A stretch of 64,000 nt of DNA from Acidobacteriota bacterium (GTDB taxonomy: Bacteria; Acidobacteriota; UBA6911; RPQK01; JAJDTT01). The position numbers were made by a program, and so were the translations under genes. The DNA is taken from positions 3,584,001 to 3,648,000 of the forward strand of contig CBDCJH010000002.1 of NCBI GenBank assembly GCA_965217775.1. The letters run 5' to 3'. The notes under the pieces were generated by a model. That model made no database searches. It saw nothing but the letters and a program-made list of their open reading frames with translations, and had not been told where the DNA came from. Of the stretch, positions 5,712-47,013 are shown in pieces (within the stretch, counting starts at the first letter, position 1; the number at the start of each line of letters is the position of its first letter).

Positions 5712-5738
5712 CGCCCTGAGCACCCGGAACGTGTAACC

Positions 5739-7992: not shown

Positions 7993-7999
7993 CGGACTG

Positions 8000-11537: not shown

Positions 11538-11599
11538 CCAGGCTCCATGATGCGGGTTCTGCTTGCGGAACGAAGGACTTGCAGAGCGATCGGATGGGA

Positions 11600-12331
11600 T
11601 CACAACACGAGCGCCCCTTCCACCAACATGTCGGAAACCGGAAAATTGACGCGCAACCGTCGGTACACCGACGGGATGTTGACCTCGAAGTTGACTTCCT
11701 TCTGGTCCGGCGAAACCACCGCAACACCGTCGATCCGGCGGGGAAAGACGAACTTGGCCCCCACTGCCTCCTCTCTGGGGGGAAAGTAGGCGGCCAGTTC
11801 GATTCGCGGAAAGCCCTCGGTGGCCAGATACGCCCGGTCTCTCATGGTCTCCAGCGTTTGGGAATCGAAGAAGCGCTTCACGCTGAGCTCCATGTTGGGG
11901 TTGTTGGACCGGAAGCTGATGGTGACCACGATCCAACGGCTCACGTCCATATTCAGACCGGGGGCGATGCCGGCATCGAGACGGCGCTTCTCTGCCTGCG
12001 TCATCTCGTCATAGCCGTTCTGGAGTTGCTGAACACGGGCATAGGCCCGGCGGATGGGCGGGGCCGAAAGCAGCCGGACGAAGAAGGTATTGAAGATTTC
12101 CTTCTCCCCATGAATCCCGCTGCCCACACCCCCGACGACTCGGGTATAGGTCTGTTTCCGGGCCCAGGGAGACCGGTTCAGGATCCGGGTGGCTTCGGCC
12201 AGAGTCCAACTGGAATAATCCCTGCTCAGGATCTGCGTGGCGTCCGGGACGGCGGCGCCGGCCGACAGACAGAGCAGCAAGATCAGACCCGTTCGCAGCA
12301 GCAATGGAACTCCTCTAAAGATCCCGGTCAA
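11600..12331 (-). CDS. Secreted hypothetical protein
   Basis: Signal peptide and protein-like composition (WTLAEATRILNRSPWA); co-oriented with the barrel gene. Confidence 0.75.
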   Translation of the reverse strand: MTGIFRGVPLLLRTGLILLLCLSAGAAVPDATQILSRDYSSWTLAEATRILNRSPWARKQTYTRVVGGVGSGIHGEKEIFNTFFVRLLSAPPIRRAYARVQQLQNGYDEMTQAEKRRLDAGIAPGLNMDVSRWIVVTISFRSNNPNMELSVKRFFDSQTLETMRDRAYLATEGFPRIELAAYFPPREEAVGAKFVFPRRIDGVAVVSPDQKEVNFEVNIPSVYRRLRVNFPVSDMLVEGALVL

Positions 12332-12474
12332 TCCCCTCAGTCAGGAACTCGCACTCCGCCGGGCCGCGCCTGTCACACTCGGCGACGGCTTGGAATCAGC
12401 TTAACATACGGGTCTGCCCGCTCCCGAAAGACGGGCGGAATGAGGACTGAAATACGGTCTGACGACGGTGCCCG

Positions 12475-14010: not shown

Positions 14011-14206
14011 GAGTTCACCTTTCCTCTGAACCGGATCAATGCATGGCAGCCCGGAAGGGACCGCTCCGACGTCTCCGAAAGTTTGAGCCCGCCGCCGCCA
14101 AGTGTCAATCGCCGCCCCCCTCTCTCCTCTTTCCTCTTTTCACTTTCCTTTCCGCCTTGGTACGATCTGGTCCCGGCCTGGATGCCGGGCGACCAGACCA
14201 CGCGAG

Positions 14207-16675: not shown

Positions 16676-16700
16676 CCCGCGGGAGGAAAGACGAGAAGAG

Positions 16701-17836
16701 ATGGAATCCACACGGTATGAAGGTCGAGACTATCGGACCGGCAGACCCGTCTCCGTCGGCGTGAAGGGTGAGACCATCACCGATGTGCGGCCGGAGAACC
16801 GCGCCGAGCCTGGTCTCTGGACCGCTCCGGCCCTGTTGGACATCCAGCTCAACGGCTTCGGCGGCTACGGATTCAACGAAGCGGAGACCTCGCCGGAATC
16901 GGTGGCGCAGGTGGTCCGGAGTCAGTGGCGGGCCGGAATCGGCGCCTTCCTCCCTACCGTGACCACCCACTCCCAGGAACGGATGCTTCATTCCGTGAGA
17001 GCCGTCACCGAGGCTTGCCGCGATCCCCGGATCCGCCGCTCGATCCTGGGAATCCACTTGGAGGGTCCCCACATCTCACCCCTGGACGGTCCCCGGGGAG
17101 CCCACCCGCTGGAACATGTCCGGCTTCCCGCGTGGGACGAATTTCTCCGTATGCAGGAAGCTGCCGACGGGCGAATCCTCCTGGTGACGCTGGCGTCGGA
17201 GCTGGACGGGGCCATCCCCTTCATCGAGCGCCTGGTGGACGCAGGCGTGGTGGCCGCCATCGGTCACACCAACGCCTCGGCACACGATCTGGACGCCGCC
17301 ATCGAGGCCGGCGCCCGGCTCTCGACCCACCTGGGAAACGGCGCCCACTCGTTGCTTCCCCGGCATCCCAACTACATCTGGGAGCAACTGTCCAGAGACC
17401 AACTCGACTGCAGCGTCATCGCCGACGGTCACCACCTCCCCGCTTCCGTTCTCAAATGCATTCTGCGCTGCAAGGGAGTGAAGCGCACCATCCTCATCAG
17501 CGACGCCATCACCCCGGCCGGACTGCCTCCCGGCACCTATCCGGCGGCGGGGGGAGAGGTGGAGGTGAACCCCCACGGCCGAATCTCCCTGGCCGGAACG
17601 CCGTACCTGGCCGGCGCCGGAGCCCATCTGGGCCAGGGCGTCTCCAACCTGGTCCGAATGGGAGTGGCATCGCGCCGGGACGCCCTCCGGATGGCCAGTC
17701 TCCATCCCGCCCGGCTCCTCGGTCGAGACGACCGGATGGGAGCCTTGGAAGCGGGAAAGCTGGCCAACCTGATTCAGTTCTCGTGGACGGAAGAGGGGAT
17801 CCGCGTCCATCGAACCATGGTCGGCGGTCAGGTGGT

Positions 17837-17858
<22 letters not shown>
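16701..17858 (+). CDS. nagA: N-acetylglucosamine-6-phosphate deacetylase family amidohydrolase
   Basis: DIQLNGFGG, GIHLEGP, GAH, IGHT, THLGN, IADGHH, LISDA and LAG motifs. Confidence 0.88.
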
Positions 17859-19969
<2,111 letters not shown>

Positions 19970-30984: not shown

Positions 30985-32196
30985 TTACCAGCCCTGGCTT
31001 CCCAGGACGTGATCGGTCAGATATGCCAGCATCTGGTTCAGCACCGCAGCATCGGTCAAGACCGCGGCAGTGGACAACAGGCATCCGACGACCACCAGCG
31101 TTCCTCCCAGGACCTTTCCCACGTCCTGGCCCTTGAGGCTGCCCAGTTGGTGGCTCTCCCCGGAGAGGTAGGCCGAGGCGGCGAACAGCTCCTCACCGAT
31201 GAGCGTGTAGTCGCACGCCGCCACGAAGAAGGGGAGCTGCGAGGGCATGGCGGTTCCGGCCACCTGGATGGCGCCGACGGCGTTGCCGGTCTCGGCCAGA
31301 ATCAGCGACTCGGCGAAGAAGGCGCCCATGTAGAAGCAGGCGGCCGGCCGTTCCCGGAGCATCTTACCGGTGACGCCGGCCACGTACCCGAACTGCTCGT
31401 CGGTCAGGTAGTAGACCGCGTCCTCGTTGAAGGCATCGGGACGGCCTGCCCCCAGATAGGCCGCCTCCACAGTTTCCCGGCAGGCCGTCATGACCAGGGA
31501 ACGGGAAGTGGGAACGTCCAGCCGGGCGTCGAATTCGGCTGTCAATCCGGCCACGTGCGACAGGACCGTGACGCCGGCGAGGGTCTGCATGTCGTTGATG
31601 TCCAGGATTCCGGGGACGAAGAGACAGGGACGCCCCATCTCGGTGGCCCGCCCCACGGCTTCGTCCACCGCTTCCAGTCCCGCGATCCGGCGGACCTTGA
31701 GTTCGCGTCCGCTCCGGGCCAGTTGGATGAAGTAGACGACGCTTCCCCCCACGATCAGCAGGATCACGCCGAACCAGAGTTGGGAGAAGTCGAAATACTG
31801 CATGACCGGCGTCACCGGCCCCCTCGTGGCGGCGGCGGGTGACCGTGCACCGTCCGGTCCAATGGCCACGACCTGGTAGAGGTAACTGGCTCCCGGCGTG
31901 CACCGGTCGTCCTTGAAGGACCGGGTCTGGTACGTCTCTTCTCCGATTTTGGTGAAGCTCTCCCCGGCCGCTTCCCGCCTCAGGATCTCGTAGGCGACGA
32001 CCAACCGTTCCGCGGGTTGGGGCTGATCGTCGGGGGAGAGTTCCCACTCGACCTGCACCGCCTCCCCGGCGTCATTGGGAAAGTCGACGGCCCGCACTTC
32101 ACCGGGCGGCCGGGGGGATTGCGCCAGGACCGGAGAGGCCCCTCCCGAGAGGACGAGACCGCCGGCCAGCACCGAAAAGAAAATCGATTTGTCCAT
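30985..32196 (-). CDS. Signal peptide, fibronectin type III domain and membrane-associated domain (DUF6754-like from recall)
   Basis: Fn3 pattern PPGEVRAVD..VEW...YEILR...YLYQVVA; TM; then RRIAGLEAVDEAVGRATEMGRP and QLPFFVAACDYTLIGEELFAASAYLS. Confidence 0.8.
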   Translation of the reverse strand: MDKSIFFSVLAGGLVLSGGASPVLAQSPRPPGEVRAVDFPNDAGEAVQVEWELSPDDQPQPAERLVVAYEILRREAAGESFTKIGEETYQTRSFKDDRCTPGASYLYQVVAIGPDGARSPAAATRGPVTPVMQYFDFSQLWFGVILLIVGGSVVYFIQLARSGRELKVRRIAGLEAVDEAVGRATEMGRPCLFVPGILDINDMQTLAGVTVLSHVAGLTAEFDARLDVPTSRSLVMTACRETVEAAYLGAGRPDAFNEDAVYYLTDEQFGYVAGVTGKMLRERPAACFYMGAFFAESLILAETGNAVGAIQVAGTAMPSQLPFFVAACDYTLIGEELFAASAYLSGESHQLGSLKGQDVGKVLGGTLVVVGCLLSTAAVLTDAAVLNQMLAYLTDHVLGSQGW

Positions 32197-32201
32197 CTTG
32201 T

Positions 32202-33326
32202 TCACGCCTCGATCAGTTCCACGTTGGCCCGCGGCACCACCAGCCGCCGGCCCGACTCCGAGCGGACCTCCAGCACCCGTGCCCGGGACCCGGAGCCCAG
32301 AACCTGGGGTTCGGCCGGAAGCCCGGAGACCACGCCGATCAATCCGAAATGCGGGTCCCGGATCACCCGCACCGGCGTTCCCAACTCCAGCCTGCCGACA
32401 GGACGCGCCTCGTCCACTTCCACTGCCTCTCCGGGAGCCGACGGAATCACGATTTCCGGCCGCAGGACCCCGGCGCGAATCTGAGTCGCCCCGTTGACTG
32501 ACGCTGGGTCCCCTTCCCGGGAGGCCAGCAACTGGAAGGTCTTGCGGGCCATGGCGATTCGGCCGAACCCTTCGGTGATGATCAGGGTCGTCGCCACCGG
32601 TTCCGATCCGGTGATGGCGACCCCCAGGTCGTAACCCAGGATCTCCCTTAGATCCGCATCGTCCATGCCTCCCGAGACCAGGGCCGAGATGCCGATCCGA
32701 AAGGCCTTGCGGACGGCTCCTCCCGTCATCCGGCTGCCGCCGACCACGACGGCTCCCTTCATCCCCTCTTCCAGCCGCTCGGCCGTCAACTCTTCCTTCT
32801 CGTCCCGGCAGGCCATTCGGACGGGCCCGAAGGCCTCGCCGCCGATTCCAAAGATCCCCTGGATGAAGGTGGCGTCCGCCTCCAGCACGACCCCTTCTCC
32901 CGGGATCTCCTCGACCACCTGGCCGGCCAGATAGGCCAGGACCCGGACCGGGATCGGTTCTCCGCGAAGGATGACCTGCCCCGTGACTTGGGAAATGGAC
33001 TCGATGGTCCCCGCAACCCTGGCCCTGCACTCCGACTTGAACAACCCGAAAATGCCCTTGGTCCGAGCCAGGGCCTCGCCGGCTTCCACCCGCATGCCGG
33101 GCTCCTTGAGCATGCATTCGGGGACGTCCGCGGGGGGCAGCGACAGGAGGTTGGCCACGTTGACCGGCGTGATGCTTCCCGGCATGAAGGTCTGGGCGAC
33201 CACCTCCCGGGAGTCCACCTGCTGTCCCGCCCGAACCAGAACATCTCCCTTGATGGGCAGGATCCGCCGGCAGCGATGTCGGGTTCGAGGACTGACCTTC
33301 AGACCTGGGGTGTATGCGTGGGCCAT
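32202..33326 (-). CDS. Soluble hypothetical protein with barrel-sandwich-hybrid repeats and a C-terminal KOW-like motif
   Basis: GDVLVRAGQQV and KEPGMRVEAGEALA...RARVAGTIESI repeats; IQGIFGIGGE, TEGFG and GATQIRAG; C-terminal GTPVRVIRDPHFGLIGVV. Confidence 0.85.
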   Translation of the reverse strand: MAHAYTPGLKVSPRTRHRCRRILPIKGDVLVRAGQQVDSREVVAQTFMPGSITPVNVANLLSLPPADVPECMLKEPGMRVEAGEALARTKGIFGLFKSECRARVAGTIESISQVTGQVILRGEPIPVRVLAYLAGQVVEEIPGEGVVLEADATFIQGIFGIGGEAFGPVRMACRDEKEELTAERLEEGMKGAVVVGGSRMTGGAVRKAFRIGISALVSGGMDDADLREILGYDLGVAITGSEPVATTLIITEGFGRIAMARKTFQLLASREGDPASVNGATQIRAGVLRPEIVIPSAPGEAVEVDEARPVGRLELGTPVRVIRDPHFGLIGVVSGLPAEPQVLGSGSRARVLEVRSESGRRLVVPRANVELIEA

Positions 33327-33341
33327 CCTCCGTTGACCTCG

Positions 33342-35162
33342 TCAATCCCGTTCCGGAACCGCGGGCACCAGTTCCAAATCCCGGACCCATTGAGTCATGG
33401 CCTTCCGGCAAGCCTCACGACCGGAGGGCAACGTCAGCGGACGTCCCCTCGCGTCCAGCAGGACTCCCACCGTCCCGCCCCTGAGCTCACCCTCCAGGGG
33501 CCGGCCGGGACCCGCCCCCGCATCCACTTTCCGTGCCGGCTCCACCACAATTCGCGCACTGGCTCCCAGGCCCAGCGGCAGCCGCTTGACCTCGCCGAAG
33601 GAGAGGGCGCCCTCGTTCTCCAGGCCGTCGCCGGAGATGGAATAGCGGAAGGCCGGGCTGCCCCAGGCGCCGGTTCCCCTGGGAGCCACGCAGGTTCCCA
33701 GGGAGATGAGGCAATCCCTCTGGAACACCTGGAGCGCGGCCTCCGGGTGGACCTGGGCCAGAACCCCCAGGTGCGGCATCATGAAGATGCTGTCCTTGGC
33801 CAGCCAGGTGATCCCCTCGGGCTGAAAGGCGTCCACCAGGAGCGCCGCCGTCTGCTGCATCAAGGGGGCATGGGAAAGGACTCCTCCCGATCCCACCAGC
33901 AGATCCAGCTTCATGTTGTCCACCAGGGTCTGTCCGCTGGCCTCCTGCCTGAAGGTGTCTCCCACGGTCCTCTGCTGCTGCACGCCCTTGAGCGTGGTGG
34001 CGAACTGCTTGTGCTGGTCATAGGCCAGGCGCAGGGCCTCGCGCGCCACGGCCTGCTCGAAGCACAGGGATTCCCGGGTCTGGGGAATCGTGGTGGGGCG
34101 GATCATCTTGTTCTTGACGTGGTTCCGCAGCTCCCCCTCCTCCATCTCCAAGTGGACCCAACGGAGGATGGAGGGCAGCGTCGCTTCGGCACAGACGTTG
34201 GAGATGGAGTAGCTCATTCCCAGGTTGGCGCTCACGGTGCGGTTGAAGGTGCCGTCGAAGACGCTGAAGACGTCGGTCGTGGCCCCGCCGATGTCCACGC
34301 CGACCACGTTGATCCGCTGCTGTTCGGCGATCCTCTGCAGGATGTTCCCCACCGCCCCCGGGGTGGGCATGATGGGGGCGTCGGTCCACTGGATCAGCCG
34401 TTCGTAGCCGGGGGCATGCGCCATGACGTGTTCCAGAAACAGGTCATGGATCTTGTCCCGGGCCGGACCCAGATTCTCCCGCTCCAGGACCGGACGCAGG
34501 TTGGGAACGACGGAGAGCTGGACCGACTCGTCGAAGGTCTGCTCCACCAGCGGCGCCGCGTCCCGGTTCCCCGCGAAGATCACCGGCATCCGGTACTCGG
34601 CTCCGAAGCGGGGCTGGGGACGGGCCGGCGCGATGAGCTCGGCCATCTGCACGACGTGGCGGGTGGTCCCGCCGTCGGTCCCTCCCGAGATCAGCACCAT
34701 GTCGGGCCGCAGCTCCCGGATCCGGTGGATCTGCTGGTGGGGGAGGCGGCGGTCATTGGAGGCAAGAACGTCCATGACGATGGCGCCGGCGCCCAGGGCC
34801 GCCCGCTTGGCGCTGGCGGCCGTCATCTCCCGCACCACGCCGGCCACCATCATCTGGAGGCCACCGCCGGCACTGGAAGTGGAGATGTAAAGATCGCACC
34901 CTTCACCATCGGCAGCGGGCCGGAGAATCCGGCCGGCATCGTCGATGAGGCGGCGGCCAGCCATTTCGGCCACCTCCGAGACGGCGTTCACGACGCCCAG
35001 GGTCACGTCGGCCGCCGGTTCCTCAACCGTCGTGGGAGCCTCGCCCCGGTGGGTCTGCCGGTATTCTCCACCGACCTTTTGGATGAGGATGGCCTTGGTG
35101 GTGGTGCTCCCGCAGTCGGTGGCCAGGATCACGTTGATGGATTCGGGATCGATCTGCTTCAT
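33342..35162 (-). CDS. GlmL/MutL (glutamate mutase L) family ASKHA ATPase with a C-terminal extension
   Basis: TDCGSTTTK, SSAGGGL, SGGTDGG, IMPTPGAV, VDIGGATTDV and GSGGVLSHAP motifs; ATG 35162 overlaps the upstream stop. Confidence 0.88.
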   Translation of the reverse strand: MKQIDPESINVILATDCGSTTTKAILIQKVGGEYRQTHRGEAPTTVEEPAADVTLGVVNAVSEVAEMAGRRLIDDAGRILRPAADGEGCDLYISTSSAGGGLQMMVAGVVREMTAASAKRAALGAGAIVMDVLASNDRRLPHQQIHRIRELRPDMVLISGGTDGGTTRHVVQMAELIAPARPQPRFGAEYRMPVIFAGNRDAAPLVEQTFDESVQLSVVPNLRPVLERENLGPARDKIHDLFLEHVMAHAPGYERLIQWTDAPIMPTPGAVGNILQRIAEQQRINVVGVDIGGATTDVFSVFDGTFNRTVSANLGMSYSISNVCAEATLPSILRWVHLEMEEGELRNHVKNKMIRPTTIPQTRESLCFEQAVAREALRLAYDQHKQFATTLKGVQQQRTVGDTFRQEASGQTLVDNMKLDLLVGSGGVLSHAPLMQQTAALLVDAFQPEGITWLAKDSIFMMPHLGVLAQVHPEAALQVFQRDCLISLGTCVAPRGTGAWGSPAFRYSISGDGLENEGALSFGEVKRLPLGLGASARIVVEPARKVDAGAGPGRPLEGELRGGTVGVLLDARGRPLTLPSGREACRKAMTQWVRDLELVPAVPERD

Positions 35163-35473
35163 TTGCCGGCCGAATCGAGTTCTTCGATCCGGCGACAAAG
35201 ATAGTCCACCGAGCCCCGATGCTCAAGAAAGGCGGCCAAGTGCCGGTGTCCGTGGGACTGGGTGAGTCCCGAGAGCATGGGCGACAGGAAATGCAGCAGC
35301 TGGGAACCCAGGAAGTTGAGGGGGCGGGACATTTCAAGAAACATGAGAGCCGACGTGGCCAGCCGGCGCCGCACCAGTTCCCGGCAGATCCGATCGGCCA
35401 CCTGGCGCTGCTCGTCCGAGGGTTGGAACTCGGACGGAGTGTCTACGGCAAAGGCGTGCCGCCAACCCTTCAT
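35159..35473 (-). CDS. Small hypothetical protein, first gene of the GlmL operon
   Basis: 104 aa, helical (LVRRRLATSALMFLEMSRPLNFLGSQLLHF); translationally coupled to the GlmL-like gene. Confidence 0.75.
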   Translation of the reverse strand: MKGWRHAFAVDTPSEFQPSDEQRQVADRICRELVRRRLATSALMFLEMSRPLNFLGSQLLHFLSPMLSGLTQSHGHRHLAAFLEHRGSVDYLCRRIEELDSAGK

Positions 35474-37256: not shown

Positions 37257-38216
37257 TCAGATGTGGATTCCGGGCCAGGCCTCACGAATCCGCTGCTCCA
37301 GGATCGACTTTGACACCGGTTTCTCCAGCCGCAGCCGAGCGGTCGCATTCTTACCCAGAGCGTCGCGGGGGGCCAAGCCCACGATTTCCGAGGAGGAGAC
37401 CCTGGTGCCCAACTCATGGGCGTGGCGGTCCACAGTCTCGAAGAGCCGGACCAGGGAAGTCCTGCGAAAGTCGGTGAGATTGGTGCTGACCTGCCCCTGA
37501 TTCCGGCTGGCGATCCACAACCCCAGCGCCTTGACGCCGGGCAGGCCACCGTCCCGTTCCCGGATCCGGGCGGCCACTTTCCGTGCCACGGTCAGATCGG
37601 GATCTTCGAGAACCATGTTGTAGGCGATCAGATAGTCCCGCGCTCCGACGCAACTGACTCCGACCGTCGGATGGGGGCGAGGGGGTCCGAAGTCGGGTGC
37701 CCAGGCGGGGTTTCGCGCCATCCGCCGTCGCAGCGACACCAGACCTCCCCGCCGGAGGTACGCCAGGGATCTTCGCTCGGGACGGGTCGCCGCCCGCTCG
37801 TAGAGATAGACCGGGAGTTGGATCTCTTCCGCCAGAGCCTTTCCCAGCCGGCGAGCGCTCCGGATGCAGTCGGACATGGTGACGCCGCGGATCGGCACGA
37901 ACGGAATGACGTCCACGGCGCCGATCCGGGGATGGACGCCTCGATGCCGGGAGAGGTCCAGGAGGTCGACGGCCCGGCGGCACAGCGCTGCCGCGGCCTG
38001 CTCAAGGCCCGGAAGAGAGCCCGCCAAGGTGAAGACGGTCCGGTGGTGGTCGACGTCGGCGTCCCAATGGAGCACAGCGGCGGCGGGCGTCTCGGCCGCC
38101 GCCCGGGCCAGTTCGCGGAGAACGGCCGGGTCGCGGCCTTCGCTGACGTTGATCACGCACTCGGCAAGCGAGGATATCGCCGTCCGCTTGTTCTCCCCAC
38201 CTCTCCCCACACTCAC
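37257..38216 (-). CDS. ftcD: Glutamate formiminotransferase
   Basis: ECVINVSEGRD, DVDHHRTVFT, HRGVHPRIGAVDVIPFVP, GARDYLIAYN and SEIVGL motifs; start uncertain. Confidence 0.92.
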   Translation of the reverse strand: MSVGRGGENKRTAISSLAECVINVSEGRDPAVLRELARAAAETPAAAVLHWDADVDHHRTVFTLAGSLPGLEQAAAALCRRAVDLLDLSRHRGVHPRIGAVDVIPFVPIRGVTMSDCIRSARRLGKALAEEIQLPVYLYERAATRPERRSLAYLRRGGLVSLRRRMARNPAWAPDFGPPRPHPTVGVSCVGARDYLIAYNMVLEDPDLTVARKVAARIRERDGGLPGVKALGLWIASRNQGQVSTNLTDFRRTSLVRLFETVDRHAHELGTRVSSSEIVGLAPRDALGKNATARLRLEKPVSKSILEQRIREAWPGIHI

Positions 38217-38900
38217 CCCCGAATCTCCCTTGCGTTGCCCCCCATGACACAGTCGTTCCTCTGCGACCATCGCGCCCAAGACTCGTCTTGCTCCACACTA
38301 TTGGATATACTCGCCATTCTTGAATCTTCGAACGAATGCTTGGGAGACCAATTCCAACCAGAAACATGCGTCAGGCGTCCCGGGATAATTTCCACCAAAC
38401 AGTCAAAGATTCGGAAGAAAAGTCATGGCGTCCATTACGGGGTCGTCTGGAAATAGCTACGTTCGAACCGGGCGGTGTCTGCCCCCCCGATATCAGAAAT
38501 CTGAATCGTTTCCCCTATAGCAAGACCACCTGCATATTGCACGCGCCGTTATCGAGATCCTGCATAGGATTCGCAGCTGTATCACCGAACAGCTCGGACA
38601 CGCATTCTGACACCGGCCGGGAGACTCCTCCGTGCCAATATCTCGCACTTGCGCCACGTATGATCACCGCTCGCGACGGCACTGATCTTCTACGGCGTCA
38701 TGGTACACTAGAAGTTAGATTACTCCACATTAACCAAACAATACCTCCTACGCTTCGGACCTACCTATCATCGGCCCCAGCAAGCGTGGTCGGCATCTAG
38801 ATTTATTGAATGTCTTAGACTTCATGCTCAGGTGTACGTGTAACATTGTCAACCTCCGGAACATGTCTCGCCAAAAAGAACCTGATCGAGAGCAGACTCA

Positions 38901-41900
38901 TTGGACACATATATGAACTTACCAACACAACCCTCCGTGCCAAGTGGCCTTCCTGCCTATTTGGTTGGACAAGCCGGATTTGATCACCTTTGCACCCTCC
39001 TCGGCATTGAAACCACAGCCCGCAAACAAAGTGTCGTTGGCAGCGAGGCCGTTAGACGTGCTCTGAAACAACTCGGCCCTGCGCCACGAGGCCTTCGCAG
39101 GGCCGGTCGCCTGAAGTGGAGCTTGGTAACCTTCTATAGCTCGCCACGACATCGGCTTAGGAACTGGCAAATTCACGTAGATGCTGACCTCGATTCATCC
39201 AAGTTAATACCATCCCTTGAAGCAAACATTATAAGCAAATTCGACAACGATCTGTATACCGCCGCGATCGATGATGCCGCATTAGTCGACTGCCATAACT
39301 TCTTTGACGCTGAGGAGGAATTGGAGCCATGGAAACAACCCGCCGTCGGTGCCCTGCCGATAATACATAGAGAAATCCTCAACTGGCAGAAGCTCGAACT
39401 CAAACGGCGTGATATCGTGGCGTTAGCCGCCTTCGCCGTCGCGACGATTCTGGAGGACTCACGTTTACTCTTCTGGGCCGCTGAAACAGTTGACGACCTC
39501 GCTACAGAATTCTCGTTCATGGGCGACTCTTTCACCTCCAGAGTCGACGATGTAGAGTCTGATCAAATCTCCAACGTTCCAGCCAGGAAGCAAAATGTCG
39601 TACAAACGTTTCGCAATGCATGCAAGGACTTGGCTGAAATCGCATTGAAACTCCGCTGTGACCCACCGGACTTCCAGTTATTCCAAGATCTGTCACGTCG
39701 CTACGACGCTGTCCGGGACTTAAGAGAACGCGCCATCAGCGAATTGGTAGCAAACCAGGTAACGAATTTTCTGACTGCAATCGAAGAAACCATCCTCTCG
39801 CAAGCCACAGACGCCTCATGGCTGGGGGGAGAAGTAGAGAAGATTCTCGCGTCATGGGCTGGAGAGTATCCCACCAACAATACCGATCTTGAAACCCTGA
39901 AAACCGATGTCGAGAGGGTTAAGCACGACTTGCCAGTCGCCATAAATGCGTGGCATTCGGCGGTCAAGACTACACAGACGATGTTGCGAGATTTGCGTGA
40001 GGTCGAAGTGGAAGGAGGTCTCGCCGGTCAGCTTAGTGCAAACAGGCGTGCCGAAGAACTCTATACGGCCATCGCAGCCGCAAAACGCGGCGAGATCGAT
40101 GCGATTCATCATGCGCTCCAATTAGCGTCGCCTAGTGGCCAAGGCTGCACAATCGCATCTGCCGCTCAGTCAGAGGAGGAACCTCTTAGTAACCAGAATG
40201 CAGAATTGACGGATAACGACAACGGCATCGAAACAACCCAGGAGCACCAAGCGCCCTTCCAGCATCAACCTGAACCACCTCCGGCCAAACCAGACATTGT
40301 CGGAGGCGGCGATGTTCATCCCACTATCGTCCAAGAAACAACCGCGACAGACGCCACCGAATCCCCCACCGCGACCGATCAAGCCACCACTCGCAATATC
40401 TCGGACGAATCCACCCTCCCACAATCTGAGACTGGAGACCAACTTGACTCACCTATCAGCGCGCTCGCTGAACCTGCTTGGCAAGCCATTGGACATCACC
40501 TTCCAGGTATCGCCTACCACATCGTACGCCTGACACCGTTTGAACAGCGAAACCCGACGTTTCCTCCCGCGGATCTCGTCGCAGCGGCCGCTGTGGCTAA
40601 TTCCGTAAATGTACCAAATGATAAAGTCGTAGAGACGCTTACCGAGTACTTGACAGGGATTCATCCTAACGACTTGAAACGGGATAATGAAGACGTCCGC
40701 GATGCTTTACACTTGTTACTTTTGTCAGCAACATTGCGTCCCGCTCTCTTCGCTCCATCAGCTGGCGGACTGTCGCAGTTGCGGCATTTAGAACTATCTT
40801 CTGCTTTTTCCTCAGTGTACGAACTTGCCGAAGTCGTCGCCAATCACGCAGAGTCATTGCAGGCCATAAGCCTTGACGTTGCCCGAGTTCGAGGCGCCCT
40901 TAGTAAGACTGCGTGGCAATACCAAGTTGAACAGCACATGGAAGCTGTTCAACAGTGGCTTCGAAATGCCGGCTCTCAGCGCATCCTCCATGGTCCTACA
41001 CAACGTGTGTGGAAACACTGGCAACGTAAAGATGGCATATTGGGAGAACTCGTCGATCTTCTCTTGAACATCGACCAAACAAATCAAGATAGAGTCCGGG
41101 AGATCCAAGCGAAACTTGAAGACCGACAGGCATACGTTACTCTTGTCAATTACACAGACCGGATTCAACTAGGACGAAAGACGGGCAAAAACATCGAAGG
41201 CCGTGCGTTGACCCAGCTTCGCAAGCACACAGTTCCGATACTAGAGTTCTTGCGGAATTGGCATCGCCTCCTCGCAGCTAAACCAGATCCTACAAATTAC
41301 ATCGACCGCACAATCGTCTCCCTTCGGCACGCTTTGCATATACACGGTCCGGCCGCTATCTTGACACTCAACAATTTCGAGCTCCAACAGCCAATACTGC
41401 CAGTTGCCGCTGCCATTAAATGGGCTCGCATTTCCATTGAAGATTTAGTGGCCTTATTCGACAGCACGGATGCCGTCGATGTCACCGAGCGACAACCGCA
41501 ACTCGTCAACGTCGATCACGATCTCGTGTTCGCCGTTGACGTGGATATAGATCGTGACTATCACTTCGCGGATGGCCAAGACCCTAAACTATGTCTCAGC
41601 TACCTTGCCCAAACAGCCTTGCGTCCCCCGACATTACCAGAAGCGTTTCACGCACGTTCCGGGAGAGGTGATTTAATTGGTGCTAGGCTAGCGTGTGATC
41701 GTATGGACGCAGTCGCCGACTCAGAAGCTGACCGTTGTCGCATTGATCTCGATAACATTATCCAACAAAAGCGTCGCGAATTACGCGCGCTCCGGATGAA
41801 GTTAACCGGCGACATTGAACAGAGCTATTGTCTAGGACAACTCACGCCGGACCAACGCGATGATCTAGCCGCGCGGTGTGTCGCGACCCACGTGGCTACT

Positions 41901-44900
41901 ACACACGCAGACACCGTAACGATCGCAATCAAAGAACTGAGAGCAATTGATGGGTGCCTCCGCGAGTATCGCGATAAGAGCACTGCAACGTTGATCAATA
42001 GCATTCGTGAATTGAAAGGCAAGGCGACGCCCGAGGAAATGTCACTCATTAAGGAGGCCCAAGACACGAATGATCTCGTAACAGTGCGAGAGTACGCGGA
42101 ACGTCTTAAAAATGGAAATCCAATTATAGCCACCGGCTCATCCGAACCGGACAGTTTTGCTGATTTTCTCGACGCCCTGCCCGAGATCAATAATGTACTT
42201 GAAGCATCGAATCGCCCGACACACGGTTCGATTATTGCGGCGGTTAAACGGCGAGAAAGCGTCGCTAGCATTAATTTTGCGTCCATGACCGAACATGAAG
42301 CCACGCAGGCGAGCCATCTCCTAGAGGCGTGGTATCAGATTGCTAGATATCACGAACTGGACAATCGCCTACTCCGCGATCTTTTCTCCCTACTCGGTTT
42401 TGACGTAAAGACAGTCGAGACCGCTGGCGACCGGATAGCAGTAGTCCAAACTGAACCGTTGCAAGACCGAACGCTGTGTCCGATACACATGTTCGGCTCC
42501 GCTGCTAACGGTCAGTACAGGGTCCTACTAAACTGGCGCACACCGGCCCGTGATTCGCTCGTCCAGGCAATCGGCGGACTACGCGGCCAACTTATGGTCC
42601 TCCATTTCGGTCCCCTTGGCGATGATAGAGAGTTCCTTCGCAATTGGTCCTTACAAAACCAACGTCTTTTCCTAGCGATTGACGAAGCTCTGGTACTCTT
42701 TCTTGCCGCAAGACCCAACGGTCGTTTAAAAGCCCTATATGATTCCACACTTCCATACACGGCCGCAGATCCGTTTGTCACGACTTCAAGCCTAGTACCT
42801 CCCGAAATGTTTTATGGTCGCACCTACGAACGGGAGGAAGTGATGAACCAATATGGCGGCTGTTTCGTCTACGGCGGTCGCCAACTTGGGAAGACGGCGC
42901 TTCTCCGTTCCGCAGAAACAGTCTTTCACCACCCAAAGACTAGGCACATCGCTAAATGGATCGATCTCAAAGTTCGTGAAATTGGTTATGCCCGTCAGAC
43001 TGAAGACATTTGGAGCGTTCTTTGGAAAGAGCTAACCGAGGTCGGTATCATTCCTGAAATGGGCTCTCAGCCTAAAGGTACACGCAGCCTCGTTTCGACT
43101 CTCACGCGCGCCATAAAAGAGTGGCTCAAGGACAACAAAGACAGTCGGATCCTATTGCTACTGGACGAAGCGGATGCTTTTCTCGAGGCAGACGCCCACA
43201 CAGATTTCCTTGAGTCTACACGACTCAAGGGATTGATGGATGAAACCGAACGTAGGTTTAAGGTAGTATTTTCTGGTTTACACAATGTATTGCGGACCAC
43301 AGAACGAGCCAACCACCCGCTCGCTCACTTCGGTGATCCCATCTGCATCGGCCCACTTCTCCACAACGGCGAGTGGCAAAGCGCGAGGTCCTTAGCAAGG
43401 GAACCGCTTGCTGCAATCGGTTTTGGATTCGAACATGACAACGTTGTTACGCGTGTACTTGCAAGAACCAACTACTATCCATCGCTTATACAACTATACG
43501 GTGCTGAGTTGGTCCGGTACTTACGTGACTCAACTAGAGTACCTCCCTATCAGGTACGAGCCGACGATGTTAATGCCGTTTTCATGAGGGATGGTCTTCG
43601 CAACTATATTCGAGCCCGTTTTCTTCTCACGCTGCAGCTTGATCCACGCTATGAGGTCATCGCCTATTCAATGGCTCTAGACTTGCAGGAGCACGCGGAG
43701 AACTTGGCAAACGGGTTGTCTTCTGAACACATCGCAGAACAAGCACGATCATGGTGGCCGGATGGCTTCGATATCCCCGACATTGAGTTTGATACGCTAC
43801 TACATGAGATGGCCGGTCTAGGGGTCTTGCGACGCACGATAACAGAGTCCCATGAAGGACAACGTTACACGTTTCGCAACCCCAACGTTTTATTGTTGCT
43901 AGGCACAGCCAGTGATATCGAAAAAGCGCTGTATAAGCCACGAGAATTACCAAAGATATTTGAGGCATCATCGTTTCACGCTAGGTATGTTGGCGACGAT
44001 GATTCACCAAAGCGAGGTCCGCTTACCTACGATCAGGAGGCACGACTTCGAAATCACAGAGGCGTCGCGATACTTACGGGCACTCAAGCAGCAAATATTA
44101 GACAGGTTAGCAAGTTTCTCTCGGGTCGATTAGGGTCGAGTAATTTCAGGGAACTTGAGCCATGCTATGACACAAATAGATTGGAACGCCAGCTCACAAG
44201 TTTACGACCTGATCGACGACAGGGCCTCCATGTCTACATGGTGCCCTTCGAAACTCCGTGGAGTGCGCTATGGCTTGACAGAGCTGCCAAAACTCTTAGG
44301 AGAGTCCAGCGACGCAATCTAATTCGAGTCGTGTTCATTGCTGAACCACAGACTCTATGGAGTGTGTTGGCCGACATCGACGAAAACGCGATTCTTGCGT
44401 ATCTTAAGTCGGACACTAGGTATCTTAAGTCGGACGCTCGACAAACTCGCAAACGGATTGATTGGATAGGTCTTGGACCTTGGGATTTCAGCTTCCTGCG
44501 CCGATGGTGTGATGACCACGATCTTCAGGTCGATCAGGAGGTTATCGATAAGTTGATGGAAATGTCGGGAGGATGGCCGAAGATCTTGGAGCAATACGAC
44601 CGATCTCCTCATAAGCATTCACGAAATAGGTTGGCGGCATTGGATCAATTCATTATCCGCCACCGTTCCGATCTGTTGCGGCATCTGGGAATCGATACGC
44701 CTCTAGTTCAATTCGAGCTTGAAACATTGTTTTCGTACGAGGCATTCACGCCCGATCAGGTGATCCAGCTTGTAAAAATGCAACGAGAGTCACGGGAAGA
44801 ATCTCTTAGCAGCGTTTCGTTGCGGCGACGTTTGATCTGGGCACAACATCTCGGCATTCTGCAGAACCCGACTGGAACCTGGCAGGTCAATCCTCTAGTT

Positions 44901-44927
44901 CAGAAAATGCTAAAGAAAGAGTCTTAA
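38901..44927 (+). CDS. Giant (~2000 aa) STAND-type P-loop ATPase
   Basis: PFVTTSSLVPPEMFYGR, Walker A YGGRQLGKT (~42870), Walker B LLLLDEAD, FKVVFSG and TNYYPSLIQL; long helical N-terminus. Start is TTG 38901 or ATG 38913. Confidence 0.88.
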   Translation: MDTYMNLPTQPSVPSGLPAYLVGQAGFDHLCTLLGIETTARKQSVVGSEAVRRALKQLGPAPRGLRRAGRLKWSLVTFYSSPRHRLRNWQIHVDADLDSSKLIPSLEANIISKFDNDLYTAAIDDAALVDCHNFFDAEEELEPWKQPAVGALPIIHREILNWQKLELKRRDIVALAAFAVATILEDSRLLFWAAETVDDLATEFSFMGDSFTSRVDDVESDQISNVPARKQNVVQTFRNACKDLAEIALKLRCDPPDFQLFQDLSRRYDAVRDLRERAISELVANQVTNFLTAIEETILSQATDASWLGGEVEKILASWAGEYPTNNTDLETLKTDVERVKHDLPVAINAWHSAVKTTQTMLRDLREVEVEGGLAGQLSANRRAEELYTAIAAAKRGEIDAIHHALQLASPSGQGCTIASAAQSEEEPLSNQNAELTDNDNGIETTQEHQAPFQHQPEPPPAKPDIVGGGDVHPTIVQETTATDATESPTATDQATTRNISDESTLPQSETGDQLDSPISALAEPAWQAIGHHLPGIAYHIVRLTPFEQRNPTFPPADLVAAAAVANSVNVPNDKVVETLTEYLTGIHPNDLKRDNEDVRDALHLLLLSATLRPALFAPSAGGLSQLRHLELSSAFSSVYELAEVVANHAESLQAISLDVARVRGALSKTAWQYQVEQHMEAVQQWLRNAGSQRILHGPTQRVWKHWQRKDGILGELVDLLLNIDQTNQDRVREIQAKLEDRQAYVTLVNYTDRIQLGRKTGKNIEGRALTQLRKHTVPILEFLRNWHRLLAAKPDPTNYIDRTIVSLRHALHIHGPAAILTLNNFELQQPILPVAAAIKWARISIEDLVALFDSTDAVDVTERQPQLVNVDHDLVFAVDVDIDRDYHFADGQDPKLCLSYLAQTALRPPTLPEAFHARSGRGDLIGARLACDRMDAVADSEADRCRIDLDNIIQQKRRELRALRMKLTGDIEQSYCLGQLTPDQRDDLAARCVATHVATTHADTVTIAIKELRAIDGCLREYRDKSTATLINSIRELKGKATPEEMSLIKEAQDTNDLVTVREYAERLKNGNPIIATGSSEPDSFADFLDALPEINNVLEASNRPTHGSIIAAVKRRESVASINFASMTEHEATQASHLLEAWYQIARYHELDNRLLRDLFSLLGFDVKTVETAGDRIAVVQTEPLQDRTLCPIHMFGSAANGQYRVLLNWRTPARDSLVQAIGGLRGQLMVLHFGPLGDDREFLRNWSLQNQRLFLAIDEALVLFLAARPNGRLKALYDSTLPYTAADPFVTTSSLVPPEMFYGRTYEREEVMNQYGGCFVYGGRQLGKTALLRSAETVFHHPKTRHIAKWIDLKVREIGYARQTEDIWSVLWKELTEVGIIPEMGSQPKGTRSLVSTLTRAIKEWLKDNKDSRILLLLDEADAFLEADAHTDFLESTRLKGLMDETERRFKVVFSGLHNVLRTTERANHPLAHFGDPICIGPLLHNGEWQSARSLAREPLAAIGFGFEHDNVVTRVLARTNYYPSLIQLYGAELVRYLRDSTRVPPYQVRADDVNAVFMRDGLRNYIRARFLLTLQLDPRYEVIAYSMALDLQEHAENLANGLSSEHIAEQARSWWPDGFDIPDIEFDTLLHEMAGLGVLRRTITESHEGQRYTFRNPNVLLLLGTASDIEKALYKPRELPKIFEASSFHARYVGDDDSPKRGPLTYDQEARLRNHRGVAILTGTQAANIRQVSKFLSGRLGSSNFRELEPCYDTNRLERQLTSLRPDRRQGLHVYMVPFETPWSALWLDRAAKTLRRVQRRNLIRVVFIAEPQTLWSVLADIDENAILAYLKSDTRYLKSDARQTRKRIDWIGLGPWDFSFLRRWCDDHDLQVDQEVIDKLMEMSGGWPKILEQYDRSPHKHSRNRLAALDQFIIRHRSDLLRHLGIDTPLVQFELETLFSYEAFTPDQVIQLVKMQRESREESLSSVSLRRRLIWAQHLGILQNPTGTWQVNPLVQKMLKKES
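44399..44440 (+). repeat. In-frame 21-bp tandem duplication (YLKSDTR/YLKSDAR)
   Basis: GTATCTTAAGTCGGAC occurs at 44399 and 44420. Confidence 0.85.
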
Positions 44928-44932
44928 CTAAA

Positions 44933-46048
44933 ATGAGGCTATGGGATTTGCCTGGGGCCGTACGGTTTGTTGATGCGATACAGCAGTCATTACGTGCTGG
45001 TGTGAATGTGGTTGCTCGGTTTCCCAGGACGGTTCCATCAGGATTCCGGGACACAGTTTCATTGGGTCTAACTCAGTTACTTGCTGTCGGAAGTATCGAG
45101 TGCGGACCCTCGCCGTTCGAACAGCTCTGTGGGAAGTTTTCTCCCGGTAGATTTTTTCAAGAGGACGACCTGCAGGAGCTGTGCGAGGATGATGGCTTTC
45201 AGGGACGTCTTATTTGGCTGGAGCGCCTCGACGAACGAACGTGGCCCAACTGGCGGACCTTCTTGACACGATATGCACAAGCAAGTCGGAACGTTTCTGC
45301 TTTTGGACGAACGTTATTTATGGCGACGCTTGACGGGGCACCGCCTGGGGATCCACTGGACGCTGACGTCACAATCGTGACGCATGATTGGTCTAATGTC
45401 ATAGACGAAATTGACCTTCTGTTTCTGGCCAATGATCGGTTGTTGCCGACGAAGTCCGATCCGGTTCAACGGCTACTACTCTCTACTACCGTGGCGAGGG
45501 TGGCGTCTTGGGACTTCGAGACGGCGGGACAGATGCTCGACGGCGGGACAGAAATTATTCTCGATCCCTTGGAGATGTTGAGGTCAATTGCAATTTGCAA
45601 GGGCTGGACAACTGCCACACCAGTTGCTTGGGAATTGGGAACTGCTTCGGGTAGTGGGGTTGTCCACCCAGCCCTTGCTGCTCTCGAAAACCCAGCAAGG
45701 GAGATCCGCCGACGGCTGTGGAGCGCTCAGGCGTCCGTACTGTTTCCACTCATCGAGTCTCGACGGGACGAGATCGTACGGCGGAATCTGTATGTAATTC
45801 GACGATACCTGCACAACTGCGGTGACGATGCGACAGATCCTCGGGACATGGAGATCGGTGACCTGTATTCCATGTTTCGGCGCGCAAATGGAAGCTGGCG
45901 ACTCCGAAAAAGCGTCAAGAGTCTCCGCAATGCCCGTAATGCACTTGCCCACCTAGATCCGTTACCGGCACAACAAGCCCTTGAACTGGCGCGAGTCAAT
46001 CGTGGCTATAATTCTAGAATGGGCAGGACCCATTTTACGATAAACTAG
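44933..46048 (+). CDS. Hypothetical partner of the giant ATPase with a C-terminal HEPN-like RNxxxH motif
   Basis: Starts 5 nt after the ATPase stop with the same low-GC codon usage; MEIGDL...LRNARNALAH near the C-terminus. Confidence 0.75.
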   Translation: MRLWDLPGAVRFVDAIQQSLRAGVNVVARFPRTVPSGFRDTVSLGLTQLLAVGSIECGPSPFEQLCGKFSPGRFFQEDDLQELCEDDGFQGRLIWLERLDERTWPNWRTFLTRYAQASRNVSAFGRTLFMATLDGAPPGDPLDADVTIVTHDWSNVIDEIDLLFLANDRLLPTKSDPVQRLLLSTTVARVASWDFETAGQMLDGGTEIILDPLEMLRSIAICKGWTTATPVAWELGTASGSGVVHPALAALENPAREIRRRLWSAQASVLFPLIESRRDEIVRRNLYVIRRYLHNCGDDATDPRDMEIGDLYSMFRRANGSWRLRKSVKSLRNARNALAHLDPLPAQQALELARVNRGYNSRMGRTHFTIN

Positions 46049-46155
46049 TTATCAGCATGATTCCATGCTCGGCCAGGGGCGAGCCTTTACGCGAAATCGC
46101 GACAGTTTCAAGGCCGAGAGGATTAGGATTGGACTAATGAGAACAGCCCGCTGAC

Positions 46156-47013
46156 TCAGTTGCGCCTACTGTTTCGCTCGATCCCCTCTTCTTGCTTTAC
46201 TCGTTTCGTTCTCATTCCCGAGTTCTCTCCCTGCAGGATCACCCGGGCTACCGTAAGGATCAGGATTCGACCGGCTTTGCCGTCCCGCTTGAGGACCTTT
46301 GAGGTCTCGTGGGAGGTGGCGCCCGTGGTGAGGATGTCGTCTACCAGGACCAGATCCTCTCCCGAGATTCGGCGTGCCTGCCGGAGCCGGAAGGCGTTGC
46401 GGACGTTCCTCCTTCGAGCCTTCAGGTCGAGTCCGAACTGGGGCAGAGTCGGACGCGACCTGCAAAGGCCCGGGAACACCGGAAGGTTCAGTCTTCGGCC
46501 CAGGGTTCGAGTCAGGAGGAGCGTCTGGTCGAATCCCCGTTTCCTCCGGCGCCGCGGATGGGAAGGGACCGGGACCAGCCAGGAAGGTGAAAAGGGATCG
46601 GGCCGCGCCCGGTAGGCTTCCTCCAGCAGGGACGCCAGAGGATGCGCCAGGCGGCGGTGGCCGGAGAATTTGAAGCGATGGATCAACAGTCTCAGGGTTC
46701 CGGCGTACGGTCCCCAGGCCCGAGTCGAGTGATGGAAGGGTCGTGTCCCCCGGCAGGACGCGCAGGGCTCCGGAGCCCCTGGATCTTTCTCCCGATCCGG
46801 AACCGGCAAATCACCGGCCGGCGCAGGCCCGCCACAAATCGGGCAGAGAGGATCCTGGAACCTGGGCAGTTGCAGGAAGCATTCGGAACAAAGGGGACTG
46901 GCATCCGGATTGGCGACCCAGCGGCCGCACAGGACGCAGCTTTGGGGAAAAAAGAGGACTTGGAGCCCCTGGAAAAGGCGCTTCCACAGAGTGATCCCCG
47001 GAACGGAAGACAC
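46156..47013 (-). CDS. comF: ComF family protein (double zinc ribbon and PRTase domain)
   Basis: Four CxxC pairs; VPVPSH, RGFDQ, RRRNVRNAF and LVDDILTTGAT motifs; start uncertain. Confidence 0.9.
   Translation of the reverse strand: MSSVPGITLWKRLFQGLQVLFFPQSCVLCGRWVANPDASPLCSECFLQLPRFQDPLCPICGGPAPAGDLPVPDREKDPGAPEPCASCRGTRPFHHSTRAWGPYAGTLRLLIHRFKFSGHRRLAHPLASLLEEAYRARPDPFSPSWLVPVPSHPRRRRKRGFDQTLLLTRTLGRRLNLPVFPGLCRSRPTLPQFGLDLKARRRNVRNAFRLRQARRISGEDLVLVDDILTTGATSHETSKVLKRDGKAGRILILTVARVILQGENSGMRTKRVKQEEGIERNSRRN

Follow-up and report, generated by a model that had tools for sequence, protein, structure and literature searches.

What is the function of a two-gene island that lies among the housekeeping genes of an Acidobacteriota genome? 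The window (the whole stretch of DNA that was analysed, 64,000 nucleotides) carries two co-directional genes separated by only 5 nt (TAA-ctaaa-ATG). The first open reading frame (ORF) encodes a STAND-type ATPase of about 2000 residues, and the second encodes a 371-aa partner (44933..46048) with a HEPN-type motif; both genes and all their features given below are on the + strand. STAND/NLR-type receptors are a main route of phage detection in bacteria, and HEPN RNases are common suicide effectors. Here, a STAND receptor and a HEPN effector are combined in a way matched by no named system. We propose, with a probability of roughly 55%, that the pair is an NLR-like ATP switch controlling a HEPN RNase effector on a dead AAA+ adaptor, and that it works as an anti-phage or anti-mobile-element module. 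What we infer is the defence role, the activity of the partner as an RNase and a contact between the two proteins. Prokaryotic immune modules usually show the features seen here, namely obligate pairing, constrained motifs, patchy horizontal spread, disruption by insertion sequences (IS), defence neighbours and exchange of modules.

Aligning the window flanks by BLASTN to the region around comF in five same-genus genomes, we find that homology to the window ends at 38170 and restarts at 46227. The ftcD-comF spacing is about 200 nt in same-genus genomes, and the insertion is absent at this site in 5/5 examined. Thus, the island spans approximately 38171..46226 (8056 nt, no strand), between ftcD and a ComF-like gene. 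Its composition points the same way. The guanine-plus-cytosine (GC) content is 0.519 for the island and 0.636 for the remainder of the window; over the two genes it is 0.49-0.56, against 0.60-0.70 in the flanks, and the third-position value (GC3) is 0.51 and 0.53 in the two island genes compared with 0.71-0.86 in 11 flanking genes. The sequence-only reading, a model's first look at these letters, had described two adjacent genes of foreign composition inserted between comF and ftcD, and both descriptions hold. The two genes are the sole gene content of the island.

The large gene runs from an ATG at 38913 to 44927 (2004 aa), or from a TTG at 38901 (38901..44927, 2008 aa). The public database copy (P0122) has 2004 aa and so starts at the ATG, and M5 is nearly invariant in a family alignment of 18 full-length relatives from public genomes. 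Residue numbers of the large protein are counted from the TTG. A 6-kb open frame with motifs such as these is far beyond chance. At its core is a STAND/Orc-Cdc6-type nucleotide-binding domain (NBD) followed by a helical domain (HD) and a winged-helix domain (WHD) (residues 1288-1669; 42762..43907), which is the order of the nucleotide-binding oligomerization domain (NOD) architecture. The Walker A motif GGRQLGKT (residues 1325-1332; 42873..42896) is the sole GxxxxGK[ST] in the large protein, and it is invariant from G1325 to T1332 in 18/18 relatives. In the Walker B motif LLLLDEAD (residues 1418-1425; 43152..43175), L1418, L1420, L1421, D1422, E1423, A1424 and D1425 are also invariant in 18/18, so that the P-loop earlier called intact is borne out. 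Pfam gives only a sub-threshold AAA_16 for the window protein; among the 18 relatives it gives AAA_22 in 17/18, AAA_16 in 16/18 and ATPase_2 in 7/18. The best fold matches are of the ATPase_2 and NLR type, and Avs3, Avs4 and Avs5 are also among the fold matches.

Behind the winged helix, we find a second NBD-like module (C2) with helical and winged-helix-like parts and no P-loop (residues 1690-2008; 43968..44924). It corresponds to residues 540-859 of an AlphaFold2 (AF2) model that covers residues 1150-2008 with a predicted local distance difference test (pLDDT) score of 81.8. The tandem-AAA+ proteins ClpA, ClpC and Rix7 align to the ATPase model over 650-840 columns, which fits a second NBD-like module. 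The STAND assignment of the sequence-only reading therefore stands in its NBD-HD-WHD part, while the dead module behind it had been missed. Pfam finds no repeat family (TPR, WD40 or LRR) that could form a C-terminal repeat sensor; C2 follows the WHD instead. On the other side of the NBD lies a small alpha/beta domain, delimited by the secondary structure of the AF2 model (residues 1150-1284; 42348..42752), with G-S-x-A-x-G-x-Y, H1235, R1243, R1247 and D1261-E1262 as its invariant residues; the fold-search results for the model were taken up by matches to the ATPase. Within C2, the gene also carries an in-frame 21-nt tandem duplication (44399-44438) with copies 95% identical, encoding YLKSDTR/YLKSDAR at residues 1834-1847; it falls in a segment of pLDDT <50 (model residues 690-701), and the closest homologue, P0123, is without that motif.

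The N-terminal half is more variable. The head module N1 (residues 1-210; 38901..39530) is optional in the family. In the family alignment it has P14, G16, R70, Y79, R85, W89, E107, D186 and R188 as invariant residues. A BLASTP match to N1 is present in 82 of the 120 closest relatives, N1 alone is missing from 16 of the 120 (proteins of about 1660-1830 aa), and all seven segments of the protein are present in 77. Segment N2 (residues 211-460; 39531..40280) is the least conserved part (20-35% identity) and is possibly a coiled coil; PDB-profile coiled-coil chains match at E 0.086, and one of the 18 members has a Syntaxin match. N1 has no match in Pfam, PDB or ESM Atlas, and residues 1-460 as a whole have no usable match in ESM Atlas. 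Next comes an acidic Pro/Thr/Gln-rich linker of variable length (about residues 461-514; 40281..40442), seen as an acidic Pro/Thr linker in the sequence-only reading as well. The 2008 residues expand to 2448 columns in the family alignment, where the linker consensus is nearly all x with scattered P. The middle region (residues 515-1149, about 640 residues; 40443..42347) is retained in diverged variants by tblastn. Pfam, PDB and Atlas return nothing for it, apart from one unnamed Atlas cluster at 0.76, below the level of a lead, for residues 515-1290. For the family, NCBIfam has no entry for either protein, and PDB profile searches are not significant for the whole large protein, for residues 1150-2008 or for the partner. 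The lone low PDB-profile E value (3e-4, to a designed repeat protein) is made up of eight sub-threshold stretches.

The partner had been read as a HEPN-motif protein. The motif stands, but the protein is not a simple HEPN protein. Residues 1-255 (44933..45697) have an alpha-beta-alpha NBD core and a helical lid in an AAA+/STAND-like fold; the fold searches covered residues 1-256. No Walker A motif (GxxxxGK[ST]) is present in the window partner or in any of 136 full-length representatives (those of the best 150 relatives that are at least 340 aa), so this domain is a pseudo-ATPase. Residues 256-354 (45698..45994) are all-helical, with five helices in the model and pLDDT >90, and form the HEPN-like domain. 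It holds the Rx4-6H motif RNALAH (R335-H340; 45935..45952) about 30 residues before the end of the partner. R335, N336, L338, A339 and H340 are invariant in 33/33 relatives (33 of the 120 listed were aligned). Among the 136 representatives, RNxxxH occurs in 115, a different Rx4-6H in 20 and neither in 1, the motif lying in the C-terminal quarter or so. Taken together, the partner joins a pseudo-ATPase to what is probably a HEPN domain. The window partner itself has no Pfam match, and DUF4145 matches 3/33 members.

The partner family is large. In a full profile search it comprises 2186 clusters at 50% identity at E <=1e-3, 1377 at E <=1e-10 and 594 at E <=1e-30; of 8000 candidates scored in an initial search, 174 were relatives at E <=1e-3, and none of the 120 relatives listed carries a Pfam domain or a name. 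The family of the large protein counts at least 2511 clusters at 90% identity. We also considered a derivation of the dead AAA+ domain of the partner from C2 by duplication and rejected it, since hhalign finds no similarity (E 0.16). Complex prediction of the ATPase plus C2 (residues 1290-2008) with partner residues 1-255, run without controls, gave scores of 0.00 and 0.01 against a mark of 0.32 and counts neither way.

A search with the partner profile, limited to one genome per species, yielded 32 loci. They come from metagenome-assembled genomes (MAGs) labelled Vicinamibacterales, other Acidobacteriota, Bryobacterales, Azotimanducaceae, other Gammaproteobacteria, Rhodothermales, Binatia, Gemmatimonadetes, Opitutales and Bradyrhizobium. 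The large protein matches 30 of the 32 by tblastn; the two that are missed (L030 and L031) hold only fragments of the partner. In all 29 loci that hold most of the partner (L001-L029), a homologue of the large gene lies directly upstream, near full length in 24 and with its C-terminal part only in 5. With the partner starting at locus position 10001, the large-gene ORFs stop at 10004 or 10001. In the opposite direction, the ATPase (E <=1e-30) occurs in 7 of 301 genomes sampled from the phylum of the window, and the partner adjoins it in 6 of the 7; one of these appears to be the same locus as one of the 32, and hence is not independent. The partner is present in 4 of 41 related genomes, elsewhere in the genome and at 30-55% identity. 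The distribution is horizontal and patchy.

The large gene is often damaged. Among the 24 near full length, two are cut by contig ends, a DDE_3 transposase lies inside the gene in L027 (7339-8424), in L017 it is broken by a gap of about 1.5 kb (6353-7809), it is split in L010 (5568-5571), and L028 has a frameshift. In L004 and L006, only the last 350-410 codons are left, beside IS110, rve or IS4/5 transposases. The five loci with a short C-terminal part and a partner (L002, L004, L006, L016 and L021) were considered as a minimal system. We rejected this and prefer truncation, because transposases lie directly upstream in L004 and L006 and a contig end cuts L016.

We then consider which genes surround the pair. 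For 28 loci, we scanned ORFs of 150 aa or longer, taking the nearest two on either side (106 ORFs), with the IS inside L027 added for Pfam and HamB of L006 added for PADLOC; L001 had no qualifying ORF. PADLOC matched a neighbour at E <=1e-10 in 11 of the 28 loci, and in 8 of the 28 by non-candidate models only. The neighbours are Hachiman (HamA, with HamB beside it) together with PDC-S68 in L006, PDC-S01 in L009, PDC-M21B in L010, a type I restriction endonuclease (REase) fragment in L011, methyltransferases in L012 and L019, PDC-M34A plus PDC-M34B in L014, a PtuB-like HNH and a second HNH in L015, a Tiamat-like protein in L024, Azaca ZacA and ZacB in L026, and LmuA/ABC-3C in L029. Two further PADLOC matches were judged false, namely a MutY-like protein called REase_II (L002) and DnaG called a DRT primase (L020). 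By Pfam, the neighbours include AbiEii in L020, PIN in L005 and transposases or integrases in 7 loci. The accessible part of PMC13581612 puts at 0.0153 the chance that a random gene has a defence system within 5 kb. For 11/28, the binomial tail is 2e-13 at 0.0153, 4e-5 at 0.10 and 1.5e-3 at 0.15, values that give scale only, there being no matched control. The defence-island linkage that the sequence-only reading wanted checked is thus seen for the homologues and is lacking at the window itself. It had also asked about extra genes such as helicases; no conserved third gene or helicase was seen around the close family, where the flanks are heterogeneous.

Is the pair a known system under another name? 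PADLOC v2.0.0 returned 0 families for the large protein (P0001) at E <=1 and nothing for the partner, and neither the two proteins nor their relatives match a model for a named system, in agreement with the earlier failure to match the pair to one. The 18 family members show only scattered PADLOC matches at E 0.005 or worse, and none of these is to an Avs model. Five diverged pairs have no model either; PprPIWI/PprDinG and MzaA matches belong to the heads and neighbours described below. Public names of the family are generic labels such as "hypothetical protein" and "AAA family ATPase". The accessible full-text literature held no description of this gene pair, and the six text files of the PMC13581612 supplements contain neither the accession numbers of four relatives nor the words 'pPIWI' and 'Sigma70'. 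The family could be among the 589 unnamed STAND clades given in the accessible part of that paper, under other identifiers.

Coupling a HEPN effector to a STAND or AAA+ ATPase is an established principle, seen in Avs, HEPN-STAND, HEPN-DUF499 (PMC3710099, Table 1) and BREX-related systems (PMC12839542), as far as the accessible parts of these sources go. Avs/AVAST proteins (Avs3 8dgc, Avs4 8dgf, Avs5 9jap) resemble the pair in having about 2000 residues built around a STAND NBD-HD-WHD, a nuclease-type effector, and a patchy, horizontally moved distribution near other defence genes. They differ in three respects. The NTPase of the window protein lies near the C-terminus behind about 1290 residues, whereas that of Avs precedes a C-terminal TPR sensor; the window protein has a dead NBD-like module after the live one; and what is presumed to be the effector is encoded separately, as a protein that carries a dead AAA+ domain of its own. 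The archaeal Pfam ATPase_2 family (PABY2304 2qen, SSO1545 2fna) is made of stand-alone proteins of about 350 aa, at 15-16% identity and with Pfam scores below the curated cut-off. In the HEPN-DUF499/BrxC-like system (BREX-related type 1, 'Hma'), the accessible parts of PMC3710099 and PMC12839542 place HEPN N-terminally on the live ATPase and have the system need a methyltransferase and a helicase-nuclease. In the window pair, by contrast, HEPN is C-terminal to a dead AAA+ domain, the live ATPase is the other protein, and the island has no methyltransferase or helicase; no DUF499 match is listed in Pfam scans of the window proteins and 18 relatives.

The HEPN-like domain shares with the Swt1/Abi2-clade RNases (Pfam HEPN_Swt1; PADLOC PDC-M34B) an RNxxAH preceded by G-[DE]-L. 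It differs from them in its marginal scores and in its fusion to an AAA+-like adaptor, which is not described for the clade in the sources as far as accessible. HEPN-MNT type II toxin-antitoxin modules differ in that no nucleotidyltransferase family is present in either window protein or in the island. Partner residues 1-255 share the fold of the inactive AAA+ subunits of clamp loaders and the origin recognition complex (ORC) (E. coli delta 8giy_A and 1jqj_D; ORC4 5uj7_C), and their P-loop is absent as in delta. The likeness hints that the partner serves a mixed assembly as a structural part or an adaptor. These subunits differ from the partner in that there is no sequence relationship, a HEPN-like bundle replaces the collar, and the window pair has no clamp or replication context. 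The architecture is thus unusual in combining a separate effector that has its own dead AAA+ adaptor, a tandem live/dead NBD receptor and about 1150 residues of no assigned fold.

More distant relatives keep the rear part of the large protein (the chassis, made up of the middle region, the small alpha/beta domain, the live STAND module and the dead NBD module) and change the head in front of it as well as the partner. By tblastn with P0001, chassis similarity begins at about residue 490-540 in the G005, G003 and sigma-70-headed forms and, in the pPIWI-RE form, at 912. Diverged pairs (1891 + 372 aa and 1769 + 342 aa) occur in two other same-genus genomes and are similar to the window protein from about residue 490-510 onwards. 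The diverged partners of G005, Agrobacterium and Bradyrhizobium still have the R, N and H of the motif. Searching from the Bradyrhizobium chassis, we obtained 481 proteins; among the 120 of them listed, 55 have pPIWI_RE families and 12 have the N-terminal sigma-70 regions 1.2, 2, 3 and 4 (counted from the table, the domains being confirmed separately), and the remaining listed ones are of about 2000 aa and annotated 'AAA family ATPase'. The partner types among chassis relatives are HEPN alone, HEPN with AAA_33, and a PLD-SNF2 helicase.

In the pPIWI-RE form of Bradyrhizobium (L032), a 3065-aa protein (35-9232) has pPIWI_RE_X, MID and RNaseH_pPIWI_RE ahead of the chassis, which shows 25% identity to the window protein over residues 912-1892 (E 3e-67). 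It is followed by a 549-aa partner (9236-10885) with a HEPN-like region and an AAA_33 kinase-like domain. On a B. elkanii plasmid (L046), the pPIWI-RE form (4246-13548, about 3100 aa) and its partner (13552-15201) are preceded by a gene that PADLOC calls PprDinG, so that this form sits in a PADLOC-recognised PprDinG/PprPIWI locus. The likeness to the pPIWI-RE three-gene system (PMC3702460; PADLOC PprPIWI/PprDinG) is therefore one of distant chassis relatives fused behind pPIWI-RE, next to a DinG-type helicase gene; the window proteins differ in having no pPIWI-RE, MID or X domains and no DinG helicase or REase by Pfam and PADLOC. The main text of the 2013 paper on that system (PMC3702460) does not contain the words ATPase, AAA+ or HEPN, and the fusion of pPIWI-RE to the chassis seems undescribed there.

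On the Agrobacterium plasmid pTiCFBP4996 (L045), a 1970-aa chassis form is followed by a 529-aa partner. Hhalign relates this partner to the window family over its whole length, including RNNLAH (probability 98.8%, E 5.5e-17). Partners that combine an AAA_33 kinase-like domain with HEPN are found on the Agrobacterium Ti plasmid and on the Bradyrhizobium plasmid. Around the Agrobacterium copy, a WYL-domain regulator lies directly upstream (5052-5933) with RelE/RelB and PIN genes nearby, and the pair is followed by a hypothetical gene, a ThiF-family adenylyltransferase and a patatin-like phospholipase (13684-17901). These genes behind the pair look like a second conflict module, distinct from it.

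The sigma-70-headed forms are about 2450 aa long and occur in the cyanobacteria Microcoleus, Oscillatoria and Anabaena (e.g. P0331, P0343 and P0354), at loci such as L048 (716-8074) and L047 (4597-11466). Their head matches PADLOC MzaA (E 5e-57). On a Brasilonema plasmid, a PLD-SNF2 helicase, and no HEPN partner, comes after a sigma-70-headed form, and L048 ends too near the stop codon to judge a partner. The sigma-70 head may serve as an integrated decoy or may be a sigma factor under regulation. More generally, the position of the head allows two readings. In one it would sense, as pPIWI-RE might, or act as a decoy, as sigma-70 might; in the other it would be an output, in keeping with the canonical STAND order.

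How might the pair act as an immune module? The large protein would be an ATP-driven switch made of a variable head, a long helical middle, a small alpha/beta domain, a live STAND NBD-HD-WHD and a dead NBD-like module. The partner would be an adaptor-effector, joining a dead AAA+-like domain to a HEPN RNase domain of the Swt1/Abi2 type. A trigger from the invader would be recognised by the head or the middle region, and nucleotide exchange at the single live P-loop would let the ATPase oligomerise. With the partner docked through its dead AAA+ domain, two HEPN domains would form a composite Rx4-6H site. RNA would then be cut, and the growth of the infected cell or of the invader would halt. 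Abortive infection, as the sequence-only reading inferred, is a candidate outcome.

A wider version of this proposal is possible and, as a whole, rather doubtful. Here, the pair would belong to a large unnamed family of NLR-like immune machines with one chassis and exchangeable heads and effectors, the heads including a nucleic-acid-guided pPIWI-RE module and a complete sigma-70. The sigma-70 head would perhaps be a decoy that reports phage hijack of sigma, like the integrated domains of plant NLRs (NLR-ID), the helical head of the window protein would sense a phage product, and one live and two dead AAA+-like modules would gate the HEPN RNase. The pPIWI-RE- and sigma-70-headed forms offer a route to learn how one ATPase chassis couples different recognition modules to an effector, and might also reveal whether bacteria use integrated decoys.

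Several points weigh against reading the pair as an immune module. The support for it is computational. The HEPN assignment is drawn from the motif and from weak profile matches: HEPN_Swt1 matches 9/33 members at E <=0.1 (best 1.1e-4) and not the window protein, hhalign against a bona fide Swt1-like HEPN protein (in locus L014) aligns G-[DE]-L and RNxxAH at E 0.0011 with a probability of 20%, and a PDB profile search of the domain gives nothing significant, HepS (E 1.1) and Cas13a (E 3.5) being at the level of noise. About 1150 N-terminal residues of the large protein are without an assigned fold. No matched control from the same genomes stands beside the neighbourhood count, which includes candidate (PDC) models and possibly orphan methyltransferases, and several of its loci come from related MAGs and hence are not independent. 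On viral contigs, none of 16 pattern matches encodes a relative. The flanks of the island in the window are housekeeping genes with no defence gene as a neighbour; ftcD (FTCD_N, E 2.4e-62) is on one side and the ComF-like gene (DZR_2), then rsfS, nadD and obg, on the other. Lastly, among the sigma-70 metagenome loci, L049-L052 extend beyond the stop codon of the gene, and the HEPN partner is absent in 4/4; in L049-L051 the downstream genes are housekeeping ones (CP12, glpX and hemA). These partner-less loci show that the chassis can exist without the HEPN protein, perhaps outside defence.

The last two points bear on an explanation in which the large protein is a STAND regulator with no part in immunity. 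The chassis would then regulate an output borne by the head (a sigma factor in the cyanobacterial relatives), and the HEPN-like partner would be an accessory that binds or processes RNA, acting on host transcripts. STAND ATPases such as MalT and the LAL/AfsR regulators link ligand sensing to gene expression. The fusion of four sigma-70 regions to the same chassis in relatives, the sigma-70 metagenome relatives that lie beside housekeeping genes without a partner, and the window island without defence neighbours would all suit such a regulator. However, Pfam finds no DNA-binding or sigma domain in the window family, the catalytic-type RNxxxH is almost universally retained, and the distribution is patchy and horizontal (7/301 and 4/41 genomes). 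Moreover, defence genes are adjacent in 11/28 loci, the gene is frequently disrupted by IS elements, and even the sigma-70 head matches MzaA, which belongs to a candidate defence system. We therefore regard a regulator as unlikely.

The tight coupling of the genes and their horizontal acquisition would also be expected of a selfish addiction module, similar to a toxin-antitoxin pair, in which the large ATPase restrains a HEPN toxin, the pair persists because cells that lose it die, and any anti-phage effect is secondary. HEPN RNases are common toxins of toxin-antitoxin systems in the accessible parts of PMC3710099 and PMC2701414, chassis relatives are found in 26 plasmid records, and the Agrobacterium copy has RelE/RelB and PIN genes around it. 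What speaks against addiction is the ATPase itself, since a multi-domain protein of 2000 aa with an invariant P-loop far exceeds the needs of an antitoxin. The remnants in L004 and L006 keep an apparently intact partner ORF without the full ATPase, which is hard to square with an unchecked toxin, and Pfam found no MNT or other known HEPN antitoxin domain. On balance, an addiction module appears quite improbable. A last alternative is a nucleic-acid machine of a mobile element, working on DNA in replication initiation, target selection or loading like Orc/Cdc6, MuB/TnsC or clamp loaders, with the dead AAA+ modules as structural parts. The mix of one live and two dead AAA+-like modules recalls such a machine (as in the mixed subunits of clamp loaders and ORC), but we consider it very unlikely. 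Neither a transposase, an integrase or a replication gene nor terminal repeats are present in the island, the flanks differ from homologue to homologue, fold matching ranks the ATPase_2 and NLR type highest, and the conserved Rx4-6H would be left unexplained.

Upstream of the large gene, the island has a leader of about 740 nt (38171..38912, + strand) without a convincing gene. The largest leader ORF (38336-38800, 154 aa) has no Pfam match, and the remaining ones are of at most 67 aa or overlap ftcD. Among the homologues, a 240-aa or so ORF abuts the start of the large gene in L013 (3346-4071), with fragmentary matches upstream in L008, L009, L014, L018 and L024 (Vicinamibacterales-type). ORFs of 232-245 aa abut or overlap this start in three subfamilies, namely L013, the G005 variant (L042, 6049-6786) and the sigma-70 form (L048, 21-719). 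They are mutually dissimilar, and none of them matches the window leader. Promoter-like sites in the island are no commoner than in shuffled sequence. No tRNA, integrase, attachment-site (att)-like sequence or flanking direct repeats were seen at the island ends. Public sequencing runs holding this DNA comprise 5 of DNA type in 2 studies and no RNA run.

The insertion has left its trace on both flanking genes. The comF homology to the five congeners stops about 24 codons before the comF stop codon (window 46156-46227), which indicates that the insertion gave comF a new 3' end. The long ftcD ORF (TTG at 38279) enters the island sequence by about 110 nt (38170-38279), and hence the true ftcD start is probably further downstream on its own strand. 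Elsewhere in the window and unrelated to the island, a 618-aa protein of the Pfam 'MutL' family (PF13941, E 2e-127) adjoins an 808-aa DUF6754 protein (E 3.6e-119) at 30985-35198 on the - strand, and the two ORFs overlap at 33342-33411.

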